Assembly (NCBI GenBank): GCA_964417965.1
Contig: CAYQJX010000010.1
Coordinates: forward strand, 318-64,317
Direction: 5' to 3'
Length of the DNA: 64,000 nucleotides
Source: an uncultured Elusimicrobiaceae bacterium
GTDB taxonomy: Bacteria > Elusimicrobiota > Elusimicrobia > Elusimicrobiales > UBA9959
Numbering within the stretch: position 1 is the first letter of the stretch; every line of letters starts with the position of its first letter. Shown piece by piece: positions 9,012-34,553 of the stretch. The position numbers and the translations under genes were made by a program. The notes beneath the pieces were generated by a model. That model was not told the origin of the DNA. It saw only the letters and a program-made list of their open reading frames with translations, and searched no databases.

Positions 9012-9056
9012 CCAGATAATTGTGCCTTTTTTGCCGAGCTCCCGCAATTTGGGCGC

Positions 9057-15283: not shown

Positions 15284-15321
15284 ATTAGGTTCTTCTTTTC
15301 GGCTTTCTTGCCCCGGGCGTC

Positions 15322-15354
15322 AGCCGCGGCTGCGGTAATTCCGCCGCCGCGGCT
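15322..15354 (-). promoter_or_regulatory. GC stem-loop after precursor 1 (no U tract)
   Basis: AGCCGCGGC-T-GCGG / CCGC-C-GCCGCGGCT arms. Confidence 0.55.
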
Positions 15355-15368
15355 TCCCCAGGCTGCAC

Positions 15369-15668
15369 TTAGTCTTTGTACTGCACGTACTGATCATAAT
15401 AGTAGGTGTTCCCGTTACTATAACCAGCGCCGTTCGTATAGGTCCCGCTCCTGTCGCTGTTTTCCGCCGCAGCCGCCTGCAAACCGGTGACAGCAGAAGC
15501 CACATGTCCTATGGTGCTGAACTTGGGCCCCTGTACTGCGGCCGTAGCCGCATGCGCCGCCGGCACGAAAGCCCCGATGAGCTGAAGACCCATGCCCACC
15601 CCTACCGAAGCTTTCGCCATCCGTTTAAGCGCCTCGCGCCGCGAAACCCTTCCGTCTTTAACTTCCAT
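15369..15668 (-). CDS. Putative RiPP precursor 1: Tat-type signal peptide and Tyr/Asn-rich C-terminal core
   Basis: AAGGAGG RBS; SRREALK twin-Arg motif, h-region and AHA cleavage site; core GTYTNGAGYSNGNTYYYDQYVQYKD; first gene of the rSAM operon. Confidence 0.75.
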   Translation of the reverse strand: MEVKDGRVSRREALKRMAKASVGVGMGLQLIGAFVPAAHAATAAVQGPKFSTIGHVASAVTGLQAAAAENSDRSGTYTNGAGYSNGNTYYYDQYVQYKD

Positions 15669-15722: not shown

Positions 15723-15738
15723 AGCAATTATAATGCCA
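15723..15738 (-). promoter_or_regulatory. Sigma-54 (-24/-12) promoter of precursor 1
   Basis: TGGCATTATAATTGCT on the minus strand, GG-N10-GC spacing. Confidence 0.8.
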
Positions 15739-15790
15739 CCCCTGAGAAACCGCTTAAAGGGCCCTTCCCCTGGGGTTAGGGACGACGGAT

Positions 15791-15826
15791 ATTCTCATTT
15801 AAGACCGCTTATTTTCATTTGAAAAT
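15791..15826. promoter_or_regulatory. Tandem palindromic activator-binding sites (candidate UAS)
   Basis: ATTCTCATTTAAGACC (15791) and ATTTTCATTTGAAAAT (15811), starts 20 bp apart. Confidence 0.65.
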
Positions 15827-15831
15827 GGCAA

Positions 15832-15851
15832 CCGCCGGGGAAGCCCGGCGG
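15832..15851 (-). terminator. Probable terminator hairpin
   Basis: CCGCCGGG-GAAG-CCCGGCGG downstream of the 15873-16400 gene. Confidence 0.45.
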
Positions 15852-15872
15852 CTGCGATAGCGGGAGGTGTTA

Positions 15873-16400
15873 TTATTTAGCCGCTTCGACCGTAACTTCA
15901 ATGCGGTTCTTCGGTTCGTCCAGGATAAGGGTGCTTTTCCCGAGCAGGAGCCGCGTCGCGGCCTGGAAACTCACGAACGCAACCTGTGCGCCCGCCCCTG
16001 GCACAAGGAGAGGTCCCTGCAGTTCGAACTGGGATTCAAGGATAACACAATTCCTGTCCTGCGGATCCGTTAAAGGCTTGAACCTGGCCTTGCTCATATA
16101 GCGTTTCATGTCGTACTTACGCTTACCGTCGACTTCTCCCAGGTCCACATTGGTCTCCCCGCTGGAGGAGAACTCGGCGTCCGCCCTGTCCACAGCCGTC
16201 AGGCTGCCGGAACTCTTCAGGATCTCCGTACTTATTTTGTAGGTTATCCTGTAATTGTCTACGCCGTACCTTACCATCTGTACCGGCCGATTATCCGCGC
16301 CCTCGCCCATTTTCGGACCCTTCTCGGCGGCATTGCCCTGGCCCGCCAAGGCAAGCGCCATCACGCCGAAAAGCGCGGCCACTATCATTCTTTTACCCAT
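15873..16400 (-). CDS. Secreted hypothetical protein
   Basis: Signal peptide MGKRMIVAALFGVMALALAGQGNA after a GGAG RBS; preceded by a sigma-54-type promoter. Confidence 0.65.
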   Translation of the reverse strand: MGKRMIVAALFGVMALALAGQGNAAEKGPKMGEGADNRPVQMVRYGVDNYRITYKISTEILKSSGSLTAVDRADAEFSSSGETNVDLGEVDGKRKYDMKRYMSKARFKPLTDPQDRNCVILESQFELQGPLLVPGAGAQVAFVSFQAATRLLLGKSTLILDEPKNRIEVTVEAAK

Positions 16401-16464
16401 TTTCTTGTCCTCCCGTTTATCAGACCTGACTTTGAAAACAATTTTAACGCTTTGCAAAAGGGGG

Positions 16465-16480
16465 AGCATTTTCCATGCCA
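16465..16480 (-). promoter_or_regulatory. Sigma-54-type promoter
   Basis: TGGCATGGAAAATGCT on the minus strand (GG-N10-GC). Confidence 0.6.
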
Positions 16481-16509
16481 GCAGGATAGCCCGGCAATGC
16501 TATTTCCAT

Positions 16510-16594
16510 ATGGAAATAAAAAAAGCGGGCTTACTGCCCGCTTTCGTGGTTTCTGGGTAGCTCCGGGGGGTCAGGCCCAGGGCGGTTCTTTGCC
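16510..16594 (-). repeat. Imperfect direct repeat, copy A: kinase 3' end plus terminator
   Basis: Aligns with 22141-22221; includes the hairpin AAAGCGGGC-TTACT-GCCCGCTTT. Confidence 0.8.
16571..16594 (-). pseudogene. Orphan 3' remnant of a hybrid kinase gene (GKEPPWA-stop)
   Basis: 24 bp identical to 22198-22221; no kinase ORF upstream of it. Confidence 0.7.
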
Positions 16595-16661
16595 CGCGCC
16601 TTTGTGCCCGGTGAAGTCACCAACCTGCATGATATTTACGGGCTTGCGGCCCGTCAGTGCC

Positions 16662-18440
16662 CTAGCTCATATATTTGCTGCTGGATTCCCAGAGCTTGCG
16701 GTAGTACGGCAGTCCGGCCAACAGCTCCTCATGGCTTCCCTCTCCCGCGATGTTGCCATTGCGCAGGACAACGACACGCTCGGCTAATTTTATCGCGCCA
16801 AGCCGGTGCGTGATGATGACGGCCGTGTGCCCCTTCTTAAGTTCCATGAAGTCCTGATATATGCGGTCTTCCTCAAACGGATCTATCGCGGCCGTGGGTT
16901 CGTCCAGCACGATCAGTTGATGTCCCCTGTAATACGCCCTGGCGATGGACAGGCGCTGCCATTCACCGCGGGATAATTCGGTACCATCGAATTCTTTACT
17001 GAGCAATGTCTCCAGACCCCGGTCCAGCCGTTTAAGGTCGACGTGGAAATCCGCGGCAGCCAGCGCGGATCGCACCCGCTTGTCGGAACGGTCCTGCTCA
17101 TTCGAGAACGCGCTGATCCTGACGTTGTCCCCCAGCGTGAGCTGGTACCGCTGGAAATCCTGAAAAACGCACGACACGTTACCGTAAAGGTCGTCTTTCA
17201 CGATATCTTTAAGAGCGATGCCGCCCGCGAGGACCTCGCCTTCCCCGGGTGCGTACAAGCCGAGCAGCAGCTTGGACAGCGTGGTTTTTCCGGACCCGTT
17301 CTCCCCTACGACGGCAACGGTCTCGCCAGCACGGAGGATCAACGAGATGCGGCTTAAAGCCGGCGTGGATGCGCCCGGGTACGTAAAACCGACCTCTTTC
17401 ATGACAAGGTCTTTCCTATCTCCGCAGCGCAGTTCACCGTACTTCTGCTCCTGCATTTCGAAAAAGGAGAAATACTTTTCCAGTCGGCCGGCGCTGACGG
17501 AAAGCTCTCCGAGCCTGCTGTCGAAAACTTCCTCCATCATCGCGAACATCTCCATGGTAGCCGCCAGGATGGCCGAGAACGCACCTATGGAGATGCTGCC
17601 CTTGATCAGCAGCGAGATCAGGAACACCAGGATGCTCATATACCCGGCCAGCGAGAACGCCTTGGCGGCGGTCTCCACGCCCTGGCTTTTCAGGTCGGCC
17701 CTGTATTTAAGCTGCTGGATCTTCTTGAAGGTCAGGTCGTAAAGCAAGAGGAAGAAGCCACTGGCGCCCAAAGCCCGCGTCTCCTTCAGGTATGTCCGGG
17801 ATACCAGGCATTCCTTGTAGTGCTCTTCTTTCCGGCGCAGCGCGACGGACTGGTCTTCAAGCCGGGTGTAGTAGCGGGAGCGCAGGAGATGTGAGGCCAG
17901 GACCGGGACGAAAACAAGGGGCAGTATCAACGGCAGCAGCGGCTGTACGCGGTACAGGTAAGCTCCCATGAAACCGAAATAGGGGATATAGAGGCACAGG
18001 ATATCCATGAGTACATGGACCAATTTGCGCACGTCGGCTGCTCCCCGGTAGGCTTGGCTGATCCGGTCCAGCACGTCCGGATCCTCGAACCCGGCTGCCG
18101 GCAGCCTGGCGGCTTTCTGGTTTAAGAGCTCGGTCATTTTCTGACCGCTCTTGCCGGCATAGAATTCACCGTAAAAGTTGGCGACACCGTCCACAGCTTC
18201 GTCCAGCACCTTTATAACGGCGAACACACAGAGGTACCACAGCACCGACGAGAATGGGACGCGGCCTGCGGCCAGCGCGACGACCTGGTCGAAGAACTTC
18301 TGTAGCCAAACCGTGGTAACGACCAGCATGACGGCGTCCAGGAACGTGAACGCGTACTCTATGACGAAATGCCGGGGCGAGACGCGGAACACCTGCGGGA
18401 TAGCCCTGAGGGCCTGAAGCAGGAAATGCGGCAGGGTCAT
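16662..18440 (-). CDS. ABC exporter, TMD-NBD subunit B
   Basis: GENGSGKTT Walker A, LSRGEWQR signature, LDEPT Walker B; start at 18440 overlaps the upstream stop. Confidence 0.88.
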   Translation of the reverse strand: MTLPHFLLQALRAIPQVFRVSPRHFVIEYAFTFLDAVMLVVTTVWLQKFFDQVVALAAGRVPFSSVLWYLCVFAVIKVLDEAVDGVANFYGEFYAGKSGQKMTELLNQKAARLPAAGFEDPDVLDRISQAYRGAADVRKLVHVLMDILCLYIPYFGFMGAYLYRVQPLLPLILPLVFVPVLASHLLRSRYYTRLEDQSVALRRKEEHYKECLVSRTYLKETRALGASGFFLLLYDLTFKKIQQLKYRADLKSQGVETAAKAFSLAGYMSILVFLISLLIKGSISIGAFSAILAATMEMFAMMEEVFDSRLGELSVSAGRLEKYFSFFEMQEQKYGELRCGDRKDLVMKEVGFTYPGASTPALSRISLILRAGETVAVVGENGSGKTTLSKLLLGLYAPGEGEVLAGGIALKDIVKDDLYGNVSCVFQDFQRYQLTLGDNVRISAFSNEQDRSDKRVRSALAAADFHVDLKRLDRGLETLLSKEFDGTELSRGEWQRLSIARAYYRGHQLIVLDEPTAAIDPFEEDRIYQDFMELKKGHTAVIITHRLGAIKLAERVVVLRNGNIAGEGSHEELLAGLPYYRKLWESSSKYMS

Positions 18441-20236
18441 GCGGGCACCTCCCGGTGCTCCTTGTACCATTTTGCCTGTGCCGTGAACATCTCCGCGTAA
18501 TAACCGTTCCGGGCAAGAAGGATGTCGTGCGGGCCTTGTTCGATGATCCGGCCTTCGTTCATGACTATTATTTCGTCGGCCAGCCGTGCCGCCGCCAGGC
18601 GGTGCGTGATGTATAAAGTGGTCATCCGCCCGTTAAGGCCGGACCTTCTGACGGTCTCGTAGAGGTTATTCTCGGCTAGCACATCAAGGGCCGCCGCCGG
18701 TTCGTCGAACACAAAAAGCCTGGCTTCCCGGCCGAAACTCCTGGCCAGTGCCAGCAGTTGCCATTGCCCGCCGGACAGGTCCGTGCTGTCCGGCTCCAGT
18801 TTACCCAAAGCGGTATCGGCGCCTTTTGGGAACGAACGGACTTTCACGGCCAGGCCCATCTGCTCCAGCAGCGCGTCTATCTTTCCCGCGGGAAGAGCGG
18901 GATTTCCCAATCTCAGTTGTTCCGTTACCGTCAGTTGATACTTGGCGTATTCCTGGTAAAGCACCGAGAAGTACGCTTTCCTTTCCGCGGCGGTGAAGGA
19001 GTTTATATCCCTGTTGTTCAGCAGTATCCTGCCAGTATAGTTCCGGTAGAGGCCCGTCAGCAACTTTATCACGGTCGATTTCCCGCAACCGTTCCTGCCC
19101 ACGAAGGCATACTGCTTGCCGGGAAGGATGGTAAGCGAAAAATCGCGGAGAATCTCCCTTTCGGACCCGGGATACTTAAAGCTAACGCGGTCGAAAACCA
19201 AGCTTTCCAGCGGCATGCCGCAAATGCGCTCATCCGGGGCCAGGTCGCTGCCGGGCACCTCCGAAAGCCGCTGCGCGCACTCCAAGTCTTCCAGGTACAG
19301 CCGGTTGCCGGTGTAGTCTTTGAGCAGTCCCGAAAGTTGCCAGGACAAGGTATGGATAAGCGCCGAAAGGGAGATCACCAGGCTTATAAAGACGCCGGCC
19401 GTCATCCTGTTCTCCTTTACGAGCAGCAGCAAAAGCAGGGAAACAGCTACGAGCAGCAGCGTGAAGACCGCGCTTACGCTCTTTGAGCGGAGAAAGATCT
19501 TCCTGTCCGCCTTAAAATCCAGCTCTATTCTCCGGTCCGTCTCCTCGCCCCAGAATTTGCCTATCCTGTCGCCAAAGCCGAACAGCGTCCTCTCCGAGGC
19601 CGCTTCCCTGGAAGACAGCAGGGACCTGAAATACTTGGCCTTCCTCGCGTGGGGAGCTATCTGCGCACCGGCTTCGTACGCCTCGGTCCCGCTCTTCTTG
19701 GCGATCATGACCACCGGAAAGGCCAGCAGCAGGCACGCGACGGCGGCCGGAACGGAGGAGTGGCCTATAATGGCGATAAGCCCCAGGACGCTGAGGATAA
19801 TCGCGGCCAGGTCCAGCAGATTAGTGAAACCGCGCTCTATCGAGCCGGGAAGGTCTTCGCCTACGCGCTCAAGCAGGTCGTAGGTCTCGTCGTTCTCGAT
19901 ATGCTCGTAGGAAAGACGGTTGAGCTTTGTGACAAGCTGCGGTTTCAGCTTGTTTTCAAGACGCATGTTGAAGCTGAGCTCCGCGAGCCGGGCCGCGGCC
20001 TGGAGCAGATAGCCGGCCATTAATACGGCAAAAAGCCCCGCCAGCGGAAAAAAGGCGGCGGACAGGCTTTGGGCGGAGATAACTCCGGGCAATACGTCAA
20101 GCAGGCCGGCGATGGCCAGCGTCTGCAGCACAGGCAGGGCGGCCTGCGCGGTGCGGAGGAGCAGCAGGCCCGCGGTTAACGGCCTGCTGCAATGGAAAGA
20201 TATGGCGATGTACCTTAGGTTCTTGAGAGTATTCAT
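18437..20236 (-). CDS. ABC exporter, TMD-NBD subunit A
   Basis: GRNGCGKST, LSGGQWQ, FDEPAA; N-terminal TM domain with no C39 peptidase domain. Confidence 0.88.
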   Translation of the reverse strand: MNTLKNLRYIAISFHCSRPLTAGLLLLRTAQAALPVLQTLAIAGLLDVLPGVISAQSLSAAFFPLAGLFAVLMAGYLLQAAARLAELSFNMRLENKLKPQLVTKLNRLSYEHIENDETYDLLERVGEDLPGSIERGFTNLLDLAAIILSVLGLIAIIGHSSVPAAVACLLLAFPVVMIAKKSGTEAYEAGAQIAPHARKAKYFRSLLSSREAASERTLFGFGDRIGKFWGEETDRRIELDFKADRKIFLRSKSVSAVFTLLLVAVSLLLLLLVKENRMTAGVFISLVISLSALIHTLSWQLSGLLKDYTGNRLYLEDLECAQRLSEVPGSDLAPDERICGMPLESLVFDRVSFKYPGSEREILRDFSLTILPGKQYAFVGRNGCGKSTVIKLLTGLYRNYTGRILLNNRDINSFTAAERKAYFSVLYQEYAKYQLTVTEQLRLGNPALPAGKIDALLEQMGLAVKVRSFPKGADTALGKLEPDSTDLSGGQWQLLALARSFGREARLFVFDEPAAALDVLAENNLYETVRRSGLNGRMTTLYITHRLAAARLADEIIVMNEGRIIEQGPHDILLARNGYYAEMFTAQAKWYKEHREVPA

Positions 20237-20287
20237 GTTGCTTTCGCCGCGGCCGTATTACGGCCATTTAACCGCTGCAGCGGCAGA

Positions 20288-21370
20288 TTAAAGGCAGCGG
20301 TCGGCCCGTGTTTTAAACTTGGTCCCTTCTCCGGTAGTCCCGCCTTTTCTCATGACCCGGTATTCCGATTCGGCCGTTCTTTTAGAATCGGAAGAGCAGG
20401 CGAGCGGCGAACCGTCCTCCAGCAACGCGTGCCCGGGACAATGGACGCACTTTTCCTTCAGGCCGCAGGTGGAACACTGCTGCAGATCGCTTTTCTTCAA
20501 CGACAGCAGATATTTCCGCTCGGGGGAATCATACCAGATGGTCTTCAGATCGCTCGAGAAGACATCCCCCAGCTTATGGCGGAAACTGATGCAGGGGAAA
20601 ACCTCACCGCTTGCATCTATGAAGATGGTGTTCTTGAGCGACGGGCAGATGCTCTCGTCCTGCCTCACTTTCTCCAGCAGCGCTTCGGCCTCCGGATTGC
20701 TGCTGGCCAGTATCAGGGCAATGGCGTCATCCATCCCGTCATCGTCCATGCGCAGGTCCCGCACTGACGTGTCGCCGTTCATTTTTGAGGAAATGGTAGG
20801 ACAGGGATTGAAATCGAAACCGTTTTCGGCACAGAATCCGCCCACTTCGCGGAAATCATGCCGATTGGTCTTAAGTATCGGAGTTTTTATCTCTACGGCG
20901 ATCCCATGCTTCTTCAGCAAAGCCACATTATCAAGGGCCTTCCGCAGAGACCCCTTGACTCCGGTAATGGCCTCGTGGACCTCATGGTTCAGGGAAAAGA
21001 TGGTCGTACCGAATGAGGAAATGTGAAGGTCCGCGAGCTCTTTGGCTATGCTCTCATTAATAAGCGTCGCGTTGCTCAGCAGATTGACGCTGAACCCCAG
21101 TGACCGGGCGTCCCTTACAGTGCCCATGATGTTCTTTCTTAGGAAGATCTCGCCTCCGGTCAGATTAAGGTACAACGCCCCAAGTTCCCTCAATTCCCGC
21201 AGAAGTCTCGCGACCACTGCGTCATCAAGCCCTTCAGAAACGCGTTCGGGAATATAGCAATGGGTGCATTTCAGGCTGCACCTGGTCAGAAGCTCAATGG
21301 TAACATTGAGCGGGATATCGGCTTTCTGGGTTATTGTCTGCAGCGAAACGGCCTTGATATTTTCTTTCAT
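20288..21370 (-). CDS. Radical SAM/SPASM peptide maturase (PqqE-like)
   Basis: CSLKCTHC; LTGGE; CPSL...GEVFPC...CSTCGLKEKCVHCPG...C. Confidence 0.9.
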   Translation of the reverse strand: MKENIKAVSLQTITQKADIPLNVTIELLTRCSLKCTHCYIPERVSEGLDDAVVARLLRELRELGALYLNLTGGEIFLRKNIMGTVRDARSLGFSVNLLSNATLINESIAKELADLHISSFGTTIFSLNHEVHEAITGVKGSLRKALDNVALLKKHGIAVEIKTPILKTNRHDFREVGGFCAENGFDFNPCPTISSKMNGDTSVRDLRMDDDGMDDAIALILASSNPEAEALLEKVRQDESICPSLKNTIFIDASGEVFPCISFRHKLGDVFSSDLKTIWYDSPERKYLLSLKKSDLQQCSTCGLKEKCVHCPGHALLEDGSPLACSSDSKRTAESEYRVMRKGGTTGEGTKFKTRADRCL

Positions 21371-21642
21371 TTTGCCAGCTCCCCGGAAGCAGCGATGAAC
21401 CCCTTCTCGACCAGGAGTTCCGTAAGTCCGGTCATATCAGCATCCAGCACTCTTTCCTCCACGTCATAGCTTTTTAGCAGCTCGGCCCTGATGGCCTCAT
21501 AGTCATGGAGCTTCCCGATAAGCAGCCAGAAATCTTTCCCGACATTGTCGAGGGCGTAGATGAACGAGTTCCGCTCATCGCGGAGATACAGCGTGTCCAG
21601 GATCACCTGCCACGCCACGTTAAACGTATATGTCAAACGCAT
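21367..21642 (-). CDS. PqqD/RRE peptide chaperone
   Basis: 91 aa; IYALDNVGKDFWLLI...ELLKSYDVEERVLDADMTGLTELLVEKGFI; ATGA overlap with the rSAM gene. Confidence 0.85.
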   Translation of the reverse strand: MRLTYTFNVAWQVILDTLYLRDERNSFIYALDNVGKDFWLLIGKLHDYEAIRAELLKSYDVEERVLDADMTGLTELLVEKGFIAASGELAK

Positions 21643-21808
21643 CCGGCTGTCCCCTTTTAGCGAAAGTGTAAGGTAAAAAAGCCTGAAACCCACCTGCTTC
21701 GAATAAATCCCGGAAAAGATCTAACCCGAACGTATTATATTCTTAAATGGCCGGACTGGTCCAGAACATGCCGGAGGCAGCCGGGAACCGAAACCGCAAT
21801 ATAGGCGC

Positions 21809-21855
21809 CAGGACAACGGCAGCGGACACTAACTACTCGTCCCTGCCGTTGCCTG
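21809..21855 (-). promoter_or_regulatory. Stem-loop after precursor 2
   Basis: CAGG-A-CAACGGCAG-C-GGAC pairs with GTCC-CTGCCGTTG-CCTG. Confidence 0.6.
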
Positions 21856-21867
21856 ACCCGGGACCGT

Positions 21868-21981
21868 TTAGAGCACCTCGCCGGATTTGCCGTTGCAGGC
21901 ATTGCCGTGACCGCAGCGCGTGGCGGTTTTGGCGCAATTGGAAACAACGGTCAGAACGGGCGTCGAGTAAGTTTTTTTCAT
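21868..21981 (-). CDS. Putative RiPP precursor 2 (37 aa, 3 Cys)
   Basis: AGGAG RBS; MKKTYSTPVLTVVSNCAKTATRCGHGNACNGKSGEVL with a YxxPxL RRE-binding leader motif; directly upstream of the PqqD and rSAM genes. Confidence 0.82.
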   Translation of the reverse strand: MKKTYSTPVLTVVSNCAKTATRCGHGNACNGKSGEVL

Positions 21982-22040
21982 GATAATCTCCTGGTAATTT
22001 TGTTCGTTTTCTGCGTTACAAGTTGTTACGCCCAATACGG

Positions 22041-22056
22041 AGCAATTTATATGCCA
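22041..22056 (-). promoter_or_regulatory. Sigma-54 promoter of precursor 2
   Basis: TGGCATATAAATTGCT on the minus strand. Confidence 0.8.
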
Positions 22057-22111
22057 GGGCGCCTTGTTACAGAAGCGGCCAAGTGTTTTGCTTACGGATG
22101 CCGCAAAATAT

Positions 22112-22147
22112 ATTCTCATTTGAAAATATTGTTTTCAAATATGAATA
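22112..22147. promoter_or_regulatory. Palindromic activator site (candidate UAS) plus a weaker second site
   Basis: ATTCTCATTTGAAAAT at 22112-22127, identical to 28617-28632; degenerate GTTTTCAAATATGAAT from 22131. Confidence 0.65.
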
Positions 22148-22221
22148 GAAAAGCAGGGCAATGGCCCGCTTTCCTAGTTTTGGATAGCTCCGGGAGGTCA
22201 GGCCCAGGGCGGTTCTTTGCC
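22141..22221 (-). repeat. Imperfect direct repeat, copy B: kinase 2 3' end plus terminator
   Basis: Aligns with 16510-16594. Confidence 0.8.
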
Positions 22222-23880
22222 GGTTACTTTAAGCCAGGGGAGATGAGAGAATTTTTCGGGGCCGTGGCCGGTGGCCATGGTGAGGTCGGTAAAACCTTTC
22301 GCATGCAGGGCCTGGGCCGTGTCTTCGCCCTTAACGTCGCCGCCCAGCTCGGAGTCTATATAGATTGGCGTATCTTTGGGCAGGGCTTCAGTGCCGGCGA
22401 TAAGTTCTTCCGGGGTTTTATGCGCCTTGAACTCCACGCCTGCGGCTTTGGCGGCCATCCGCCAGTTCATGTGCACCAACAGGTCGTCGTCCAGCAGCAC
22501 CGCGCGCGCAGGCGCGGTTTTAGCCGCGGCCGCCGGCAGTTCCAGCGTAACGGCGGTGCCTTTGCCCGGCTCGGATTCCATCCTGAAGCTGCCGCCCCAG
22601 GCCTCCACCGTTTTGCGGGCGTGGTAAACGCCCAGGCCGGTGCCGCCGGCCTTGCCGTGCGTTTCGCCCTTCTGCCCCAGCCTGGCCAGGATCTCCGGCT
22701 GTATGCCTTTGCCATTGTCCTTTACGGTCAGCAGCACTTTGTGGTCCAGGGCGGACAGGGAGACCGAGACGGTACCCGGCCCGCTGAAGGCTTCTACCGA
22801 GTTATTGATAAGGTTTGAGACCAGCCGCTGGAATTCGGTGGGCTCCACTGAAGCTTTGATCTCCGCAGCGCCGGCGGCGAAATCGATACTGACGCCGGGC
22901 TTATCCTTGTGCTGCAGCCGCTTCTCCGCGACCACCTGCTCCACAAGACCGCCAAGAGCGAGCACCGCGGTTTTGGGTTTAGCCGGCCCGGAGGACGGCG
23001 CGCGGTAACGGGTTAGCAGTTCGTCGGCTATGCCCTGCATGCGCGCCACCGCCCCGTCTATCATGTTGCGCTGCTCCTGCGGGAGCTCCAGCCCTTTAGC
23101 CGCCGCATCCAGCGCCGCCAGCGGCGACCGTATATCGTGCGCCACCTGCGCGGCCAGGTCTGAGGTGGCCTTGGAGATAGCCAGCTCGCTCTCCAGCCGC
23201 GCCGCCTTGCCGAGCGCGTCGCTCATGCGCCCCGTCATCTGCGCGAAAGGCGTGCCTATGGTGCCGGACGGCAGGCCGGCTATATGTTTTTTTATGGACT
23301 CCCGGATGACCTCGCTGTGCCGGGAGTCGGCCACGGCGTTGATCTCGTTGACCGAGCGCTCTATAGCGAGCAGCGTCTTCATTGCACCCAGATTGGAGAT
23401 AATCAGCAGCCCCAAGAAAAAGAAGACCACGGTAATGAACAGCACGTAGTTCTGGCCGAACACCGCGGCGTTTACGTCCAGCAGGTCTATCACGTACTCA
23501 AGCCGGCCCAGCTCAGCGCCGTTGGAGACGAACGGCACGTTATGCGTTATCTGCGCGCGCGGCCGGTCGTAAAGATTGCCTACTATCGCCTCTTTGAAGA
23601 TCCACCTGCTGCCCTCGAACACTACCGGGTGGAAAGCAATGCGTTTTATGTTTTCGTTCTTTATGCGCCACATTATGCGCTGCGTCTCAAAAACGTCGCC
23701 GTCCAGGAAGGCCTTCTCAAAGTAGGCCGCGTTCTGCCGCATGGCGGTCAGCAACTTGTCATCAGCCACCCGCACAGCGGAAAACGCCGAGAAAGCCTGC
23801 CAAAAAGCGACGAAGACCAGCACCGACACAGCATAGTGCCGCCAGTTATAAGCGAATATCCTGAGAAATATTTTTACCAT
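22198..23880 (-). CDS. Membrane hybrid histidine kinase (HisKA-HATPase-REC), copy 2
   Basis: VAHDIRSPL, NLINNSVEA, DNGKG, GTGLG; receiver LDDD...IDS...ATG...GKEPPWA; C-terminal half closely similar to copy 1. Confidence 0.9.
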   Translation of the reverse strand: MVKIFLRIFAYNWRHYAVSVLVFVAFWQAFSAFSAVRVADDKLLTAMRQNAAYFEKAFLDGDVFETQRIMWRIKNENIKRIAFHPVVFEGSRWIFKEAIVGNLYDRPRAQITHNVPFVSNGAELGRLEYVIDLLDVNAAVFGQNYVLFITVVFFFLGLLIISNLGAMKTLLAIERSVNEINAVADSRHSEVIRESIKKHIAGLPSGTIGTPFAQMTGRMSDALGKAARLESELAISKATSDLAAQVAHDIRSPLAALDAAAKGLELPQEQRNMIDGAVARMQGIADELLTRYRAPSSGPAKPKTAVLALGGLVEQVVAEKRLQHKDKPGVSIDFAAGAAEIKASVEPTEFQRLVSNLINNSVEAFSGPGTVSVSLSALDHKVLLTVKDNGKGIQPEILARLGQKGETHGKAGGTGLGVYHARKTVEAWGGSFRMESEPGKGTAVTLELPAAAAKTAPARAVLLDDDLLVHMNWRMAAKAAGVEFKAHKTPEELIAGTEALPKDTPIYIDSELGGDVKGEDTAQALHAKGFTDLTMATGHGPEKFSHLPWLKVTGKEPPWA

Positions 23881-25292
23881 CTAAAATCAGCCACCTCTGG
23901 ATATTCCGAGAACCCCCGACCGACATCTAAATTTTTAATATTTTGTGGATAATAAAGCTTTGTACTGCTTTGATACAACGGCAAGACAACAGCCTCCCGC
24001 TGCACCCCGCTCGCCAACGCCATCGCTGCCTTCACCTTATCGGCCCTACCGTCCAGGGAGAGTAATTCCTTGTACATTTTCCTGAGATCGGCAGGAACAC
24101 TATCTATCACAGCAGCCTCACCCAGATAGTACTCAAAAAACGGCGCATATTCCGGCCTGACCGTATCAGATACAATCACGATCAGCCCATAAGACTTCAA
24201 CTTAGAGCGATTATGCAATTCGCTTACCAGATCCTTTGGCACGTAGTTCTTAATAATTAGTTTGAGCCCAGTACGATCGAAGAGTCGTTTAGAGAACTCT
24301 CTAAGCTGCACAGCATTGTTTTGGTATAGATTCGCTAAAACAATTTGTTTGTTCTTTAAATAGTGCTTTTTCTCATTAGTGCATGCCGTACTACTTCTGC
24401 CCGCCTCCCCCCCTGGAATGCCTAAAGGCAGCAGCCACTTCACATCCAGTAACCCCTTCCTTTCCGGAAGAAAAGCTTCCCTAAATTCTCCCGCGTCGAC
24501 ACAATTATATACAGCATCGCGAAAACGGCTATCTGGATTATTGATGGCTAATCCCACGACACGCAGTTCGATGTTGAAAAATCCGGCAAACTCTTTCTGG
24601 ATCCATTCCGGCTGCTGGAATGTGGACAGTTTGTTGAAGTCACAGATACTCCTATCGTTAAGCCGCACGTCCCCCGGGCCGGAATACTCATGAAAGATTA
24701 CTTTGTTGTATCCATTTCGGACCGGCTTTTTTCTTTCCAGTGTGATTTGCTTACTCTTCACGCTTTTCACGAAAAAGGGGCCCAGCCCGGATTCGTATCC
24801 GGTTTCAACTTTTATGCTGGGCGCATTATCAAATTTTGATAAAAAGTCCAGATACCCATGCTTCGGTTTCTGGAACCTTATAGAAACACAGCCTTCGTTT
24901 TTGTTTATAGTGGCCCCTGGCTCATATTTCTTTGTGACTTCGGAAATATATGAGAGGAAATACTGGAAAGAAAATCCGTTTTTCGCGTCAAAGCGCAGGG
25001 TCGTGTCGGGACAAAACAGGTACTCAGTAGATAAGTTGTTGCGTCCCCAGCGTTTTAATATGCGTGACGCATAGTTCTGGCCGTCATCTTGGCGAAAAAC
25101 CGGTTCGTGCGTCTGCCGGAGGACATAGAAGGTGGAGGTTTCAGATTCGTTCTTAACGGACACTTCCGCAGGCAAGGCTCCGATCAGCACCTTCCAAACA
25201 TCCTTCTCAGAGGACGTGCCGGCAGCGCACTCCCCGGCAAAGATCGGACAAAAGAGTACCCCTAATATCCAGGCCGCGTGATTTGTAGACAT
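23874..25292 (-). CDS. Family-5-like solute-binding protein, copy 2
   Basis: Signal peptide; HEPVFR...ASRIL, GLGPFFV and VLPLYQ segments; overlaps the kinase start; AT-rich. Confidence 0.65.
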   Translation of the reverse strand: MSTNHAAWILGVLFCPIFAGECAAGTSSEKDVWKVLIGALPAEVSVKNESETSTFYVLRQTHEPVFRQDDGQNYASRILKRWGRNNLSTEYLFCPDTTLRFDAKNGFSFQYFLSYISEVTKKYEPGATINKNEGCVSIRFQKPKHGYLDFLSKFDNAPSIKVETGYESGLGPFFVKSVKSKQITLERKKPVRNGYNKVIFHEYSGPGDVRLNDRSICDFNKLSTFQQPEWIQKEFAGFFNIELRVVGLAINNPDSRFRDAVYNCVDAGEFREAFLPERKGLLDVKWLLPLGIPGGEAGRSSTACTNEKKHYLKNKQIVLANLYQNNAVQLREFSKRLFDRTGLKLIIKNYVPKDLVSELHNRSKLKSYGLIVIVSDTVRPEYAPFFEYYLGEAAVIDSVPADLRKMYKELLSLDGRADKVKAAMALASGVQREAVVLPLYQSSTKLYYPQNIKNLDVGRGFSEYPEVADFRW

Positions 25293-26008
25293 TCAGAATG
25301 GAAACCTATTTTTTTCAGGAATTTATTGGATGCGACATTGAACGGGTTGGCGCCTGTAGCCACAACATCCACAACCTGCGACTTTAACCAAGAGACCATC
25401 CGGCTTTTCACCTCGCACCTCTCATCCCCGGTCAACCCCGGGTCTATCCACACCCAGGTTATCCAATCAATATCCGTCCCGTCAAAGTATTTCGCCTTGT
25501 TCAATGGCAGCAATGCAATAGGATGACCGCTTTTACCGAGACAAAACACTTTTGCTTCCGGGATATGCTGTTCCGCGTTCGTTTGAATGATCTTAAGGTA
25601 CTCACTCTCAAGATATTGTTTCCACGGATACCCGAGTTTTTTAGCCCATGGACCACCGAAGTAGTTTTTCTCCGTAGACAAATAGAGTTCCTGCACCTCC
25701 GCTGAGCTCTTAAACGGATAGTCATCGATTCCAGACGGCGTTGCGCATTGGTTGGGGACAGTTAGCCCATCTCGTTGCGTCCGGTAGATCAACCTGGCTA
25801 AATATTTACCAGAAAGGTTCTTGTTCAGCGCGGCAAAGTCTTCGGGGATCTCATGCTTAAAATTCACAAGAAGTGTCGGGGTTTCCAAAGGCCAAGGAAT
25901 ATTATCCACAAGAGCGTTAGTAATCACGGCTGCATCATCCGCTTCGCACACCAGCAGCCTGTTCGTTTTGCTCACAACCTTTATTTTTTCCGGCATATCA
26001 TGACCCAT
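25262..26008 (-). CDS. Putative GNAT-fold protein
   Basis: C-terminal ITWVWIDP...NPFNVASNKFLKKIGF resembles GNAT motifs A/B; start may be 25996. Confidence 0.5.
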   Translation of the reverse strand: MGHDMPEKIKVVSKTNRLLVCEADDAAVITNALVDNIPWPLETPTLLVNFKHEIPEDFAALNKNLSGKYLARLIYRTQRDGLTVPNQCATPSGIDDYPFKSSAEVQELYLSTEKNYFGGPWAKKLGYPWKQYLESEYLKIIQTNAEQHIPEAKVFCLGKSGHPIALLPLNKAKYFDGTDIDWITWVWIDPGLTGDERCEVKSRMVSWLKSQVVDVVATGANPFNVASNKFLKKIGFHSECLQITRPGY

Positions 26009-26876
26009 AAATTGTTTTTTTATCCGTTGTCAGTTTCCTGAAAACTTTTTCACATAACACGCATGGAGCCGAATCCTCCGGGAGGAACGGGGCCATATTT
26101 AAACCAAATTTTTTGATAATCCCCCTGAAAGACAAACTTCGCATCATACGGTAAAACTCACTGTCCAAGTGAGCTTTAAGCGTTGGATGACAAATGTTTT
26201 GGATATTAGTATCAAAAACCAGAGAAGAGCAACAAATACTAAATCCTTTTTCCGGCAAGCAGGTTATTACTTTTTTATTAGGGCACCTGCGAGACAAGAC
26301 ATTGCGGTCAAAACTGGGATGCTGGTAAAAGATCCTGTTACTCCGGGCCCGCCCTACTGGCAACACCTTTTGCATCCCTATCTGAAAGTCTCCGATGTCC
26401 TTCAACTTATTAAGCAGCAGCATATCCATCGGCGACTGAACAGATGCCACCACTCCGAACCCGATATTCAAACTGCGACAGGCATTATGCAGGTTCCGGA
26501 TGTAGGAGAATGGCAAGAACTTCTTATGAAATTTATCATAAGACAACTGCACAGAATCCAATTTTTTAAACGAGGAGAGAAGTGTGACCGCGGAGCTCTT
26601 TGTTTTAGCAAAATGCCCGTTAGTGGTTATTTTGACTTTGAATTTATTCAATTTCCCGAGTTTCGAAAGGAACGCATTTGTACGGTCGAGATATAGGGTG
26701 GGCTCTCCCCCCAGAAAATGCAACGTTTTCATGCCATGCGATTCAACCGCATCCAGCAGAAGGCTCTCTTCTCGCGGATTAAGCGCCGCACTTGCATCAG
26801 GAGAACAACAGTGCGCACATGCAAAGTTGCATTTAAATCCGAACATGATGCCGATCTTGGATATTCTTTCAGTCAT
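25998..26876 (-). CDS. Radical SAM enzyme resembling the YydG/EpeE peptide epimerase
   Basis: CNFACAHCC, TTNGHFA, LSYDKFH, PVGRA, RCP...ICCSSL.F and CVLC follow the YydG/EpeE motif order as recalled from memory. Confidence 0.72.
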   Translation of the reverse strand: MTERISKIGIMFGFKCNFACAHCCSPDASAALNPREESLLLDAVESHGMKTLHFLGGEPTLYLDRTNAFLSKLGKLNKFKVKITTNGHFAKTKSSAVTLLSSFKKLDSVQLSYDKFHKKFLPFSYIRNLHNACRSLNIGFGVVASVQSPMDMLLLNKLKDIGDFQIGMQKVLPVGRARSNRIFYQHPSFDRNVLSRRCPNKKVITCLPEKGFSICCSSLVFDTNIQNICHPTLKAHLDSEFYRMMRSLSFRGIIKKFGLNMAPFLPEDSAPCVLCEKVFRKLTTDKKTIYGS

Positions 26877-26888
26877 TTTCCACAAAAA

Positions 26889-26927
26889 TTAACGCCCGAG
26901 TTACCTTTGGTAAAGCCCGGGCGTTAA
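26889..26927 (-). promoter_or_regulatory. Stem-loop after candidate precursor 3
   Basis: TTAACGCCCG...CGGGCGTTAA outer stem with inner TTACC/GGTAA. Confidence 0.55.
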
Positions 26928-26962
26928 CCCATTTGAATATCGAAAAGAACTTTACAGAAAGA

Positions 26963-27175
26963 TCACCCGACCTTGGTGGGCTTGGGGTCCCCATGGACAA
27001 GAACCTGGGCGCACACATTATTTAACATGCGCTGCTTCGCAGGATTCTGGATTACCTGCATAAGAGAATTCTTTTGTTTAGCCGGGAGGGTTCGGACATA
27101 CTGAACCGCCTGTATTGCAGAAAATAAGCCGACCGACACCAAAAAAGCCGCTATTATTTTGTCTTTCGTTGTCAT
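26963..27175 (-). CDS. Candidate precursor 3 (70 aa, Sec-type signal peptide)
   Basis: AAGGGG RBS; hydrophobic N-terminus ending AIQA; internal PAKQ repeat; first gene before the rSAM. Confidence 0.55.
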   Translation of the reverse strand: MTTKDKIIAAFLVSVGLFSAIQAVQYVRTLPAKQKNSLMQVIQNPAKQRMLNNVCAQVLVHGDPKPTKVG

Positions 27176-27236
27176 TTTGTTTTCCCCTTAACCCCTATAT
27201 TCTGCCATTTTTGCGGGTTTTGCGCAATTTGCCGAT

Positions 27237-27273
27237 AAAAAAAGGGAAAGCAAAGTGACTTTTTGCTTTCCCT
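27237..27273 (-). terminator. Intrinsic terminator of the rpoN-like gene
   Basis: AGGGAAAGCAAA / TTTGCTTTCCCT stem with a T tract on the minus strand. Confidence 0.75.
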
Positions 27274-27412
27274 GGATACATCCGATTAAGGTCGGATCGT
27301 GGATACTCTGGGGCCAATCCCCCAAATTACAAGGAAGACTACACGGATAGTGTACATCGCGGGGCTTGCGCGCGTAAGGGCATTAGTGCCCACGCGGCGC
27401 TAGGCCCTTGGG

Positions 27413-28465
27413 CTACCGCGCGCCGGCGGCGGCGAGGCTGAGGTCTTTGCGGTACTGGGCGATGGAGCGGCGGCTCAGGTCCACGCCGTGGCGGGAGCGC
27501 AGCTCCGCGCAGAGCCGGGTGTCGCTGAGCTGCGGCTGTTCGGCGGCTATGGAGTAGAGGCGGTCCAGGTTGACCTTCTTGGAGCTGGGCAGCAGCACCT
27601 CCATGGGCGCCTCCATGCCCCAGGGCATCTGTATCGATTTATTGGAGACCAGGCGGTTGAGCACGCTGGCGTCCACCTCCAGGTTCTTGGCCAGCGTCTT
27701 CTGGGACAAGGGGCGGCGGCGGCTGGGGTCCCCGGTGGCCAGGTAGTCGGCCTGCACGCTGATTAGGATCTCCAGCGCGCGGTAAAGGGTGGTCTTGCGC
27801 TTGTCGGCGAACTCTATCTTTTTCAGCAGCTTCTCCACGCGCTTGCGCTCGGCGGGGTCCATACCGGGCAGCAGGGCGGCCAGCTTGTCGCCGTCCACCT
27901 TGTAGCGGCCTTTCCAGATCTCGCGATGAAAGAAGGCCAGCACGGGCTCGCCGTCGTCCAGCTCTATGCCGGCCACGGCGCTGAACACCTTGGCGGCGGG
28001 GGCCTCGGGCTTCGCCTCGAATTCGGCCTGGATGAAGGCCCGGTTGACGAAATCGCGCAGGCGTTCGGCGTCCTTAATTGTAATGTCGCATTCTTCGGCG
28101 CGCTCTATGTCGCTCATCACGGCGTCGCGCAGGAAGCAGGCCTCGAACTTCTCCTGGCCTATCCCCTGGATCAGCTTCACCAGGTCGCCAGTGCCGTCGG
28201 CCAGCTCGGGCAGGTCGCCGCTGGCCATATTGAGGCCGTAGCCGGCGTATTTGCGCGCGGCGTAGCGGGCGGCGGGAAATTCGCTCAGGTTGATGGCGCC
28301 GGAGGTCTTGAGCAGCTGGAACACGCGGCCGCCCTCCAGGTCCTTTATCATCTCCGCGAATTCTTCCTCGGGCATTTCGGCCATCTGGGCCATTTTAAGC
28401 GCGCCCAGCAGGGCGGCCGAAGTTCTTGCCCCGGTGGAGGCGGTGAGTTTAAAGCTGTGTTTCAT
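27413..28465 (-). CDS. rpoN: Short, divergent sigma-54 factor
   Basis: HTH PLSQKTLAKNLEVDASVLNRLVSNKSIQMPWG and RpoN-box-like SRRSIAQYRKDL; only 350 aa. Confidence 0.78.
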   Translation of the reverse strand: MKHSFKLTASTGARTSAALLGALKMAQMAEMPEEEFAEMIKDLEGGRVFQLLKTSGAINLSEFPAARYAARKYAGYGLNMASGDLPELADGTGDLVKLIQGIGQEKFEACFLRDAVMSDIERAEECDITIKDAERLRDFVNRAFIQAEFEAKPEAPAAKVFSAVAGIELDDGEPVLAFFHREIWKGRYKVDGDKLAALLPGMDPAERKRVEKLLKKIEFADKRKTTLYRALEILISVQADYLATGDPSRRRPLSQKTLAKNLEVDASVLNRLVSNKSIQMPWGMEAPMEVLLPSSKKVNLDRLYSIAAEQPQLSDTRLCAELRSRHGVDLSRRSIAQYRKDLSLAAAGAR

Positions 28466-28509
28466 AAAAAGCTCCCTATGCGCACATTATACCTGTTATT
28501 CAAGAACAG

Positions 28510-28525
28510 AACAATTTTAATGCCA
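28510..28525 (-). promoter_or_regulatory. Near-consensus sigma-54 promoter in front of the rpoN-like gene
   Basis: TGGCATTAAAATTGTT (-12 is GT rather than GC). Confidence 0.5.
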
Positions 28526-28596
28526 GCGCTGCGGACAGCAAACTCCGATTTGGCCCCCGAGCGCCGGAAGTTTGTATAATATAGATAGGGTTATAT

Positions 28597-28632
28597 ATTC
28601 TCATCCGAGAACTGCCATTCTCATTTGAAAAT
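28597..28632. promoter_or_regulatory. Tandem palindromic activator sites between rpoN and the activator gene
   Basis: ATTCTCATCCGAGAAC (28597) and ATTCTCATTTGAAAAT (28617), starts 20 bp apart as at 15791/15811. Confidence 0.68.
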
Positions 28633-28653
28633 CAAAGCGGCCCCTGGGGGAGC

Positions 28654-30000: not shown

Positions 30001-30179
30001 CCGGGATAGATAATTCGAAACTGCTGCACGACCTGCGCTCCAAGTGCTCCAGCCTCAAGAGCGCCGCCGAACTCTACAAGGACTGTTCGCCCGCGGAAAA
30101 GAAGGAAATGCTGGCGCTGATGAACTCGGCCGCCGCCGAGATAACCAGACTGCTGGGCCAGCTTGAGAAGTCCGCCTAG
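29997..30179 (+). CDS. Stand-alone 60-aa HisKA/DHp-like protein
   Basis: LLHDLRSKCSSLKSAAEL H-box-like helix plus a second helix; ATGA overlap with the activator gene. Confidence 0.6.
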   Translation: MTGIDNSKLLHDLRSKCSSLKSAAELYKDCSPAEKKEMLALMNSAAAEITRLLGQLEKSA

Positions 30180-30243
30180 AGCGGGGTTAATAAGTATAAT
30201 TAGGTGGTCGCCCGTACCGTGGCGAATTCTTATGGAGGAAACA

Positions 30244-31764: not shown

Positions 31765-31774
31765 AGGAAAAACC

Positions 31775-33172: not shown

Positions 33173-33188
33173 GCCGGGGCCAGCCCCC

Positions 33189-33223
33189 AAAAAAGAAAGG
33201 CCCCGGAAGGGGCCTTTTCTTTT
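33189..33223. terminator. Bidirectional terminator
   Basis: AAAGGCCCC-GGAA-GGGGCCTTT with flanking A and T tracts. Confidence 0.8.
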
Positions 33224-33238
33224 GCGCGGAGCCGGCGG

Positions 33239-34048: not shown

Positions 34049-34130
34049 TTTTTTTCCGTGGTCCCGGCCGGCGGCTACAGGACTATTTTACAAACTTTAT
34101 CCGCGCGGTATGATTTGCTATAATAAACAC

Positions 34131-34325: not shown

Positions 34326-34553
34326 CCCGGACGCACTCCCCTCCCTTCTTGTTTCCAGGTCTGGCCGCCCCCCGCGGGGCGGCCGGACTTATTTGTCCCC
34401 GCAGGCGCCCCGCCAAAGCCGGAAACAAGAATTTAATAATTTATAAACAAGCCTTTTGTATAATTTTCCTGTATCTTATAAAGGGATTCTATATTTATCC
34501 CTTTATATCTTTTATACCGATTTTGGGCGTACCGGTCCCGGAGGACTAAAAAA

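Follow-up and report, generated by a model that had tools for sequence, protein, structure and literature searches.

Sigma-54 is regarded as one homogeneous family, of which Region I and the core-binding module are fixed parts. The pairing of such a factor with an activator of its own is known from Cereibacter (Rhodobacter) sphaeroides, for which PMC11999139, citing Poggio et al. 2006, gives the pairs RpoN1/NifA, RpoN2/FleQ and RpoN3/AprX, and E. minutum has been described as having neither sigma-54 nor its activators (Francke et al., PMC3162934). We have analysed a stretch of 64,000 nucleotides (nt) from an uncultured Elusimicrobiaceae bacterium, here called the window, in which the gene for a compact sigma-54-like protein of 350 amino acids (aa) is placed divergently from that of an NtrC-type enhancer-binding protein, and in which four matching -24/-12 motifs, P1 to P4, precede two peptide-precursor genes, the gene of a secreted protein and the sigma-like gene itself (Table 1). 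The first-pass annotation had seen in them a sigma-54-type regulon tied to the neighbouring sigma/activator pair, and the enrichment of the motif, an upstream activator sequence (UAS), the adjacency of the two genes and the GAFTGA loop of the activator support this. That the four motifs are enhancer-dependent -24/-12 promoters of the sigma-54 class, serving one set of co-regulated units, is a reading to which we give a probability of roughly 0.6.

All four motifs were found on the minus strand where they had been reported. TGGCAT and the -24/-12 spacing, with 10 bp between the two doublets, hold as well. The full pattern TGGCAY-N5-TTGCW is matched at P1 and P3, and the -12 element deviates at P2 (ATGC) and P4 (TTGT). 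Most loci orthologous to P4 have GC (TTGC) at this place, where P4 has GT. The pattern TGGCATN5TTGYT matches three times in the window against 0.11 expected, and none of 100 shuffles had three or more matches. The looser TGGCAYN6TGS is not enriched in the window (3 against 2.09 expected), and therefore a matrix trained on other genomes was used instead; it has 22 positions, was built from 73 sites of other genomes only, and was run over both strands of the window. By this external matrix P4, P3, P1 and P2 are, in that order, the four best sites of the whole 64 kb. A score as high as that of P1 was reached in none of 300 shuffles, and P1, P3 and P4 are far beyond chance. The score of P2 was reached somewhere within 128 kb in 24 of the 300 shuffles, and on the coding strand of the cluster's intergenic DNA (1,442 nt) 0.003 sites are expected at or above it. 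P2 is marginal by its score, yet it is backed by its position and by its conservation in L077, a Logan contig that is 88% identical to the P2-P1 region. In this contig both -24/-12 elements are kept while the surrounding intergenic sequence has diverged: at P2 the TGGCAT and the ATGC remain between diverged flanks, and at P1 the changes are confined to the spacer. Chance matches in AT-rich intergenic DNA might be suspected from the unenriched loose pattern and from the score of P2, which turns up in 8% of the window shuffles, but the strong enrichment, the conservation in relatives, the strand bias and the associated UAS leave this explanation with next to no probability, and for P1, P3 and P4 it is already refuted.

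If transcription starts about 12 nt past the -12 doublet, the predicted leaders of P1 to P4 are 44, 54, 49 and 34 nt long, and a start codon with a Shine-Dalgarno sequence follows each of the four sites. All of them lie inside the cluster and none in the remaining ~47 kb, so that the word local, which had been used of the regulon, is borne out for this window only (4/4 sites in the cluster). A hand-weighted consensus scan had ranked three of the sites at the top and missed P4 owing to its GT, and the trained matrix was preferred. With a score of 1.9 bits, TGGCGCCTATATTGCG in front of the PqqD gene (21795-21810) was not accepted as a promoter, and a sigma-70-like TGGACC-18-TATAAT at 21734-21763 is a mere consensus match. 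Just downstream of P2 a block GCGTTAAAATTGTTTTCAAAG (16437-16452, minus strand), which is also kept in L077, has the look of the sigma promoter's spacer and -12 element with half a UAS behind it; it may represent either a decayed second promoter or half of an activator site placed downstream.

The comparison set was 76 genomic loci (L001-L076) with 10-kb flanks, 1.146 Mb in all. TGGCA[CT]N5TTGC[ATC] has 73 sites in these loci against 3.05 in shuffles (maximum 8), a 24-fold enrichment, and 69 of the 73 are on the strand of the sigma gene; by the matrix there are 132 sites of at least 16 bits, 118 of them co-oriented with the sigma gene. Positions outside the search pattern are conserved too (A at spacer position 10 in 71/73, C at +16 in 66/73 and T at +17 in 58/73), and the extended consensus in the relatives is TGGCAT-WAAAA-TTGCTCT. 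At 35 related loci the downstream gene is the sigma gene itself, and these sites are orthologous to P4; the other targets are open reading frames (ORFs) of ~30-76 aa, often rich in Cys and Gly, and, as a third class, proteins of 127-264 aa whose N-termini resemble signal peptides. A relative with a 30%-identical sigma and a genome of 32.5% GC has a neighbouring activator gene, the site TGGCATAAAAATTGCC and three copies of TTTTCA-N2-TGAAAA, and there the motifs stand ahead of an operon for a major facilitator superfamily transporter and a radical S-adenosylmethionine (SAM) enzyme. In six relatives the sigma promoter stands ~170-210 nt ahead of the sigma gene, with a Gly/Phe/Cys-rich ORF of 31-33 aa between them that may encode a leader peptide or a precursor made from the same transcript.

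At the sigma gene the motif has a second face. The -12 element of P4, TTGTTC, is at the same time a -35-like hexamer, and it is followed at 17 nt by a perfect TATAAT. Among the relatives, 30 of the 35 promoters next to a sigma gene have a perfect or near-perfect TATAAT 17-18 nt past the -12 hexamer TTGCTC; only 2 of the 43 other sites do. This overlapping promoter would give a self-activated sigma a basal, sigma-70-dependent start. The overlap could also be taken to mean that a repressor or activator of sigma-70 promoters uses the motifs as operators, which would then be mere look-alikes of -24/-12 elements; in line with this, the spacer (WAAAA) and the 3' extension (TCT) vary less than is typical of sigma-54 promoters. 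Against this stand the exact GG-N10-GC geometry, the co-orientation of the sites with genes, their place 35-100 nt before start codons, the lack of a -10 hexamer at promoter spacing in 41 of the 43 non-sigma sites, and the co-occurrence with a protein that has a sigma-54 DNA-binding domain and with a GAFTGA activator, and we regard such operators as very improbable.

K-mer enrichment in the 200 nt before the 73 related sites gave a single motif, the palindrome TTTTCAAATGAAAA(TAT). Its k-mers are present in 25-41 of the 73 upstream regions against ~1-2 expected. For 47 of the 73 sites at least one copy lies at -60 to -125; the copies are often paired 20 bp apart, and their offsets cluster about 10 bp apart. 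In the window, where 0.56 copies are expected, there are six, every one of them at P1, P3 or P4 (distances in Table 1 are from the centre of the palindrome to the T of TGGCA), and the candidate UAS of P4 is also within the leader of the divergent activator gene, a layout that is kept in relatives. In L077 the arms of the UAS of P1 are conserved while its centre, its flanks and the stretch down to the -24/-12 elements have diverged, and the keeping of the arms and not of the centre fits a dimer site. From these patterns we read the palindrome as the candidate binding site of the adjacent NtrC-type activator. The palindrome ATTTCCATATGGAAAT was rejected as a UAS of P2, being too near to the promoter (-29.5) and deleted in L077. 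A scan of metagenomes with an 18-mer of the promoter found the palindrome within 160 nt at 27 of 123 matches, 11 of which also show a sigma-like gene in the fetched stretch; the contigs are short and most of the matches are without a UAS.

The domains of the activator are PF00158 (1e-55) and, above its cut-off, PF00072 (9e-09), and it carries the GAFTGA loop. Its C-terminal helix-turn-helix (HTH) was seen by eye and in end-to-end NCBIfam alignments to AtoC and NtrX, with no separate Pfam HTH_8 match. The k-mer of its extended -10, the likely sigma-70 promoter between the UAS and P4, is enriched upstream of related promoters (21/73) and is conserved in the alignment with relatives, and the UAS is within the leader of the activator gene itself, which could allow autoregulation. 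In 55 of the 76 loci the sigma-like gene lies beside an activator gene, and several genomes have at least two sigma-like copies, some of them each beside its own activator. In six distant relatives (L054, L061, L062, L069, L075 and L076) the activator and sigma genes are one operon; by eye, a variant promoter [TC][GA]GCAT-WWAAA-TTG[CA]TC is present on the opposite strand ~150-250 nt before the activator start, and the TTTTCAAATGAAAA palindrome adjoins the TAAGAT -10 of the operon. No unrelated activator genes were found in the 1.15 Mb around the sigma genes nor in the window.

A different view of the system is that the 350-aa protein is the general, and only, sigma-54 of the lineage, much diverged at its N-terminus, that other activators share it, and that activator and UAS alone define the regulon. 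Such a sigma would agree with a core promoter that is the ordinary sigma-54 consensus and is found in unrelated organisms, with cis elements that are unchanged across very divergent members of the family, and with E. minutum, the one cultured relative on which the literature was consulted, which has neither canonical sigma-54 nor activators (PMC3162934), so that no canonical copy is known from the phylum. It agrees badly with the genomes that have two or more copies, some each with an adjacent activator, with the presence of the same activator family beside the sigma gene in 55/76 loci, with the lack of unrelated activator genes in the 1.15 Mb around the sigma genes and in the window, and with the confinement of all four window sites to the cluster, and we think it unlikely.

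The sigma-like protein itself matches sigma-54 in its C-terminal part only. PF04552 is above its cut-off in the protein of the window and present in 23/23 members of the family; a family profile run against sigma-54 chains in the PDB matches over residues 201-350 only, and the DNA-binding domain aligns to residues 332-474 of the E. coli protein and 186-340 of that of A. aeolicus. An RpoN-box-like LSRRSIAQYR is invariant or nearly so in the family. The score against TIGR02395, the NCBIfam equivalog model for rpoN, is 58.9 bits and below the threshold (cut-off 277). The gene had been called rpoN-like, and this stands for the C-terminal DNA-binding domain and fails for Region I and the core-binding domain, which are undetectable by sequence. 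In the AlphaFold model (predicted local distance difference test, pLDDT, 71.7) the chain runs from a long N-terminal helix through a bundle of helices and a small beta unit to a very long helix, the HTH and a three-helix C-terminal domain, and a conserved N-terminal helix is predicted at residues 11-30. The top 28 Foldseek hits are sigma-54 chains only, with 280-420 aligned columns and template modelling (TM) scores of just 0.3-0.4, so the likeness of the fold to sigma-54 beyond the DNA-binding domain is only suggestive. Since the N-terminal 200 residues have no detectable sigma-54 similarity, both the binding to core polymerase and the dependence on an activator are putative for this protein. 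It fits sigma-54 by every contextual criterion and fails two of the three domains that are defined by sequence, and we therefore call it a compact sigma-54-like factor.

About 250 homologues that share sequence words with it are nearly all 340-360 aa long, and the named ones are all Elusimicrobia. An exhaustive HMMER search gave 330 cluster representatives at E<=1e-10, aligned from end to end at 26-34% identity and ~340-390 aa in length, and the sole named distant member belongs to the Elusimicrobiales. Three members, P0125 (914 aa), P0127 (839 aa) and P0116 (477 aa), have long C-terminal extensions with no recognisable domain; for P0125 and P0127 a fusion of sigma and activator was ruled out. 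A canonical RpoN did not turn up in the fetched Elusimicrobia DNA (76 loci). This bears on another possibility, that a canonical RpoN encoded elsewhere reads the promoters and that the 350-aa protein is an accessory binder of -24/-12 DNA that does not engage core polymerase, be it a competitor, a repressor or an anti-activator. A protein in which the DNA-binding domain alone is detectable by sequence, and whose N-terminal model has low confidence, could indeed be of that kind. The family is however conserved over its full length, with many invariant positions in the N-terminal 200 residues, the order of the predicted secondary structure and the Foldseek alignments match sigma-54 chains only, there is no canonical RpoN in the fetched DNA or in E. 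minutum (PMC3162934), and a competitor needs neither an enhancer-dependent promoter of its own nor a sigma-70 promoter to bootstrap it. An accessory binder is for these reasons quite unlikely.

The leader that separates the sigma stop codon from precursor 3, a 70-aa ORF, holds an aptamer that spans positions 1-71 of the family model of the 2'-dG-II purine riboswitches, a class which is said to go back to Weinberg et al. 2017. By its score it belongs to this class, with 2'-deoxyguanosine as its putative ligand. The class has had only 12 members, all from metagenomic reads and with no taxon assignable (McCown et al., PMC5473149), and its structure is described in PMC6847200. The aptamer is a three-way junction with covarying helices, named P1-P3 like the promoters, in which 14 of 21 pairs are changed on both sides, a value that 0 of 500 shuffles match. 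An arm of the intrinsic terminator that follows overlaps aptamer helix P1, and the terminator is therefore taken as the expression platform; in the minimum-energy fold of the leader it forms in place of helix P1. A covariance model made from eight copies of the riboswitch was searched against the window and L001-L076 and gave 22 copies, one in the window and the others in 21 of the 76 related loci. In the relatives the riboswitch is found upstream of the same small-peptide/radical-SAM unit, and the gene order after it is shared by L010, L014, L037 and L040-L043; in distant relatives it stands upstream of the activator-sigma operon, and in L042 and L059 it is directly behind a -24/-12 site.

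The first-pass annotation had found no complete promoter before precursor 3, and we agree: the best candidate there, TGGCAGAATATAGGGG, is without a -12 element and the matrix has zero matches. The stretch from the sigma stop codon to the aptamer has no promoter either. Most simply, read-through from P4, gated by the riboswitch, would serve the unit of precursor 3 in place of a promoter of its own, and the unit probably belongs to the regulon in this way. From the modelled folds, the ligand would turn the gated unit on.

The units of P1-P4 occupy the minus strand between 28.5 and ~11.6 kb, and strong intrinsic terminators upstream of P2 and P3 make them separate units. The cargo is of the kind that is known from clusters for ribosomally synthesised and post-translationally modified peptides (RiPPs). 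Its maturases do not reach the NCBIfam cut-offs (YydG 67 against 300 bits, DynA 140 against 450, DarE 112 against 650, and GeoRSP radical SAM 95 against 400), and by these scores no module belongs to a named radical-SAM RiPP family. Precursor 1, with its twin-arginine-like signal, may be an exported, cross-linked small protein and not a classical leader-core precursor. The 175-aa target of P2 has no family match and four homologues only, one of which, 58% identical, stands in an unrelated context. Downstream of the activator gene the pair of M16 peptidases is syntenic in 10 loci and in L001 and is part of the conserved core beside the regulators; the two enzymes may serve the peptide modules as leader peptidases.

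How variable the cargo is becomes clear from the closest relative, L001, whose sigma is 97% identical. Nucleotide synteny with it covers 27227-36189 and breaks off right after the riboswitch; it is found again within the 3' half of the kinase gene and after that only at 8000-9056 of the window; the segment of ~9.06-22.2 kb, with P1, P2, P3 and their cargo, is therefore absent from L001. Only the sigma promoter is present there, and the cargo between riboswitch and kinase also differs. A direct repeat of ~94 nt (16521-16614 and 22149-22241, 75-83% identical over two aligned segments) repeats the kinase terminator and the last part of the kinase gene behind the genes of the ATP-binding cassette (ABC) exporters. 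The two copies flank the entire precursor-2 module and have the look of a scar left when a module was inserted or duplicated. The GC content of the cargo is 0.47-0.58 against 0.60-0.66 in the flanks, and both GC and GC at third codon positions (GC3) are lower in the cargo than in the regulators. The cargo is variable, and the promoter, the UAS and the regulators are constant. Outside the cluster, at 34512-40695 on the minus strand, there are two very large ORFs (1299 and 753 aa) with no Pfam match and an extreme AT skew (+0.27 to +0.42).

Table 1. Features of the regulatory cassette and its cargo, in window positions unless a related locus (L) is named
Feature	Location	Strand	Details
P1 unit	11586-15668	minus	five genes
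GT9 glycosyltransferase	11586-12368	minus	
DynA/anSME-like radical SAM/SPASM	12358-13467	minus	best match dynobactin maturase DynA, 7e-41, below cut-off
311-aa protein of P1 unit	13455-14390	minus	no family named
Radical SAM of P1 unit	14282-15283	minus	
Precursor 1, 99 aa	15369-15668	minus	twin-arginine-like signal (SRREALK...AHA), Tyr-rich C-terminus (NTYYYDQYVQYKD)
P1, proposed promoter of precursor 1 (TGGCATTATAATTGCT)	15723-15738	minus	24.6 bits
Candidate UAS for P1	15790-15826		two copies 20 bp apart; perfect TTTTCAAATGAAAA centred -80.5
175-aa protein, P2 target	15873-16400	minus	signal-peptide-like N-terminus
P2, weaker -24/-12 site before 175-aa secreted protein (TGGCATGGAAAATGCT)	16465-16480	minus	14.2 bits
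Palindrome ATTTCCATATGGAAAT	16501-16518		between terminator and P2; UAS-like, 3 mismatches; doubtful
Terminator after ABC exporter genes	16521-16545	minus	upstream of P2
P3 unit	16662-21981	minus	precursor 2, PqqD-like, radical SAM/SPASM, two ABC exporters
Two ABC exporters	18437-20236, 16662-18470	minus	
Radical SAM/SPASM of P3 unit	20288-21370	minus	
PqqD-like protein	21367-21693	minus	
Precursor 2, 37 aa	21868-21981	minus	Cys-rich
P3, proposed promoter of precursor 2 (TGGCATATAAATTGCT)	22041-22056	minus	31.3 bits
Candidate UAS for P3	22111-22147		inverted pair TATTCATATTTGAAAA / TTTTCAAATGAGAATA; stronger copy centred -63.5
Terminator after kinase gene	22146-22176	minus	separates P3 from upstream transcription
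Riboswitch-gated unit (gating proposed)	22198-27175	minus	five genes
Histidine kinase	22198-23880	minus	
472-aa protein	23874-25292	minus	no family named
248-aa protein	25262-26008	minus	no family named
YydG-like radical SAM	25998-26885	minus	
Precursor 3, 70-aa small membrane peptide	26963-27175	minus	
Intrinsic terminator	27243-27273	minus	12-bp stem + T-run; 5' arm overlaps 3' strand of aptamer helix P1
2'-dG-II purine-riboswitch aptamer (by family model)	27267-27337	minus	Rfam RF03165, 85 bits (gathering 60), E 1e-20
Compact sigma-54-like protein, 350 aa	27413-28465	minus	PF04552 Sigma54_DBD 1.7e-15, residues 217-349 only
Sigma-70-type promoter overlapping P4 (putative)	28486-28514	minus	TTGTTC 28509-28514, 17 nt, TATAAT 28486-28491
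P4, proposed promoter of sigma-54-like gene (TGGCATTAAAATTGTT)	28510-28525	minus	31.5 bits, best of window
Extended -10 (TGTATAAT), likely sigma-70 promoter of activator gene	28573-28580	plus	between UAS and P4
Candidate UAS for P4	28596-28632		two TTTTCAAATGAGAA-type palindromes 20 bp apart; stronger centred -99.5
NtrC-type enhancer-binding protein	28654-30000	plus	REC + sigma-54-interaction AAA+ (GAFTGA) + C-terminal HTH
Two M16 (insulinase-type) peptidases	30163-33172	plus	downstream of activator gene
Riboswitch copies in relatives	L001 11129-11199; L042 14933-15003; L068 8313-8383; L072 8463-8533		17 more
Sigma promoters with intervening small ORF	L030 9815, L031 559, L039 3444, L040 1000, L042 9797, L043 9798		e.g. 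MLINNLLMVVSFFGRFFGAGVCGGFCGGRCV
Multi-copy genomes of sigma-like gene	L002/L005; L072/L076; L026		two copies in L026

Taken together, the features suggest how the cassette may work. Weak sigma-70-type promoters with conserved motifs would supply a basal level of the activator (TGTATAAT) and of the 350-aa sigma (TTGTTC-17-TATAAT), and RNA polymerase with the compact sigma would then sit in closed complexes on TGGCAT-WAAAA-TTGCT at P1-P4. The histidine kinase of the cluster would phosphorylate the receiver domain of the activator, which, bound to TTTTCA-N2-TGAAAA 60-125 bp upstream, would open the complexes by means of its GAFTGA loop and ATP hydrolysis. Transcription from P4 would give more sigma and thus a positive feedback, and its transcript would run into the 2'-dG-II riboswitch, with the terminator as default fold, and in the presence of the ligand, if the direction of the switch is as we suppose, on into the unit of the small peptide, the YydG-like radical SAM and the kinase. 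P1-P3 would drive two modules of peptide precursor, maturase and exporter as well as the secreted protein, and these modules would be strain-specific cargo on a conserved core made up of the sigma, the activator, the M16 peptidases, the riboswitch and the kinase.

Several points weigh against the four motifs being promoters of one regulon under this sigma/activator pair. P2 is weak at 14.2 bits and its neighbouring palindrome is not conserved, and P4 carries GT at -12 where GC is near-universal. The core motif is not specific to the system, for 96 of the 123 matches to the 18-mer are in unrelated metagenomic contigs and have no UAS; by their sequence these look like chance matches or the ordinary sigma-54 promoters of other organisms. 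As to the protein, PF00309 and PF04963 give no match at E<=10 in any of the 23 family members, hhalign with E. coli RpoN (an approximate query sequence) aligns residues 219-350 only, and a separate model of residues 1-205 is unusable (pLDDT 50.7). The same cis elements serve very divergent sigma/activator pairs, which argues against a promoter recognition that is specific for the pair, and with identical elements the avoidance of cross-talk between paralogous pairs is left without explanation. Transcription starts, activator binding and the use of the sigma are all matters that we infer from sequence. With these points in mind we propose, tentatively, that the Elusimicrobia have a previously undescribed family of compact (~340-390 aa) sigma-54-type factors in which Region I and the core-binding domain have been replaced or remodelled, and which are carried in cassettes with an invariant promoter-plus-enhancer, hypervariable peptide modules that are exchanged horizontally, a sigma-70 bootstrap and 2'-dG-II gating.

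If the 350-aa protein acts as a sigma, it would show with how few parts the activator-dependent mechanism can make do and would be a natural minimal sigma-54 for structural work. The promoter and the UAS could be used as search terms for silent peptide-natural-product clusters in an uncultured phylum, and the sigma together with a phosphomimetic activator could be an expression switch for such clusters in a heterologous host. The 2'-dG-II class gains a phylum and a gene context, which raises the question of what its ligand signals there, and a -12 element that doubles as a sigma-70 -35 would be a conserved answer to the start-up of a sigma that activates itself.

In the literature that was searched we found no description of this sigma/activator peptide-cluster system, and no case of sigma-54-type control of radical-SAM RiPP clusters. 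Those clusters, e.g. the YydFGHIJ epipeptide, darobactin and dynobactin with DarE and DynA, and the sacti- and ranthipeptides with a PqqD-like element, share with the present cluster the small precursors ahead of radical SAM/SPASM enzymes, a PqqD-like protein, ABC exporters and the vicinity of M16 peptidases, whereas the NCBIfam matches here are all far under the cut-offs. The aptamer matches the model of the known 2'-dG-II class end to end, and it is found here in Elusimicrobia and in regulatory cassettes of the sigma-54 type, not beside genes of nucleotide metabolism. The proposed logic of the cassette, with a sigma beside its regulator, a promoter that the sigma itself recognises, a small neighbouring regulon and many paralogues, is that of the extracytoplasmic function (ECF) sigma cassettes, but these consist of a sigma-70 group 4 factor and an anti-sigma factor, and here it is a sigma-54-type factor with an ATP-dependent activator. 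The RpoN paralogues of C. sphaeroides are likewise more than one per genome, each coupled to a particular activator and a small set of genes. They are however full-length and owe their specificity to the -11 position and to contacts between sigma and activator, whereas here the cis elements appear identical across very divergent pairs, sigma and activator are paired as neighbouring genes, and the sigma would control its own gene.

The classical NtrC-type regulons (NtrB-NtrC at glnAp2, ZraSR and AtoSC) are in many ways built in the same manner. They have the same TGGCAY-N5-TTGCW promoter, the same palindromic upstream sites ~80-150 bp from the start, often paired, the same activator of REC, AAA+ (GAFTGA) and HTH with a partner histidine kinase, and the same overlap of activator sites with the sigma-70 promoter region of the activator gene itself. 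In contrast to them, the sigma here is of ~350 aa with Region I and the core-binding domain undetectable by sequence, it is encoded beside the activator gene, under a -24/-12 promoter and in several copies per genome, and its cargo is peptide-modification modules and not nitrogen, motility or envelope genes. What is new in comparison with the known regulons is a compact sigma whose gene adjoins that of the activator, its proposed self-activation with a sigma-70 promoter built in, the proposed gating by a riboswitch, and a cargo of peptide-modification modules.

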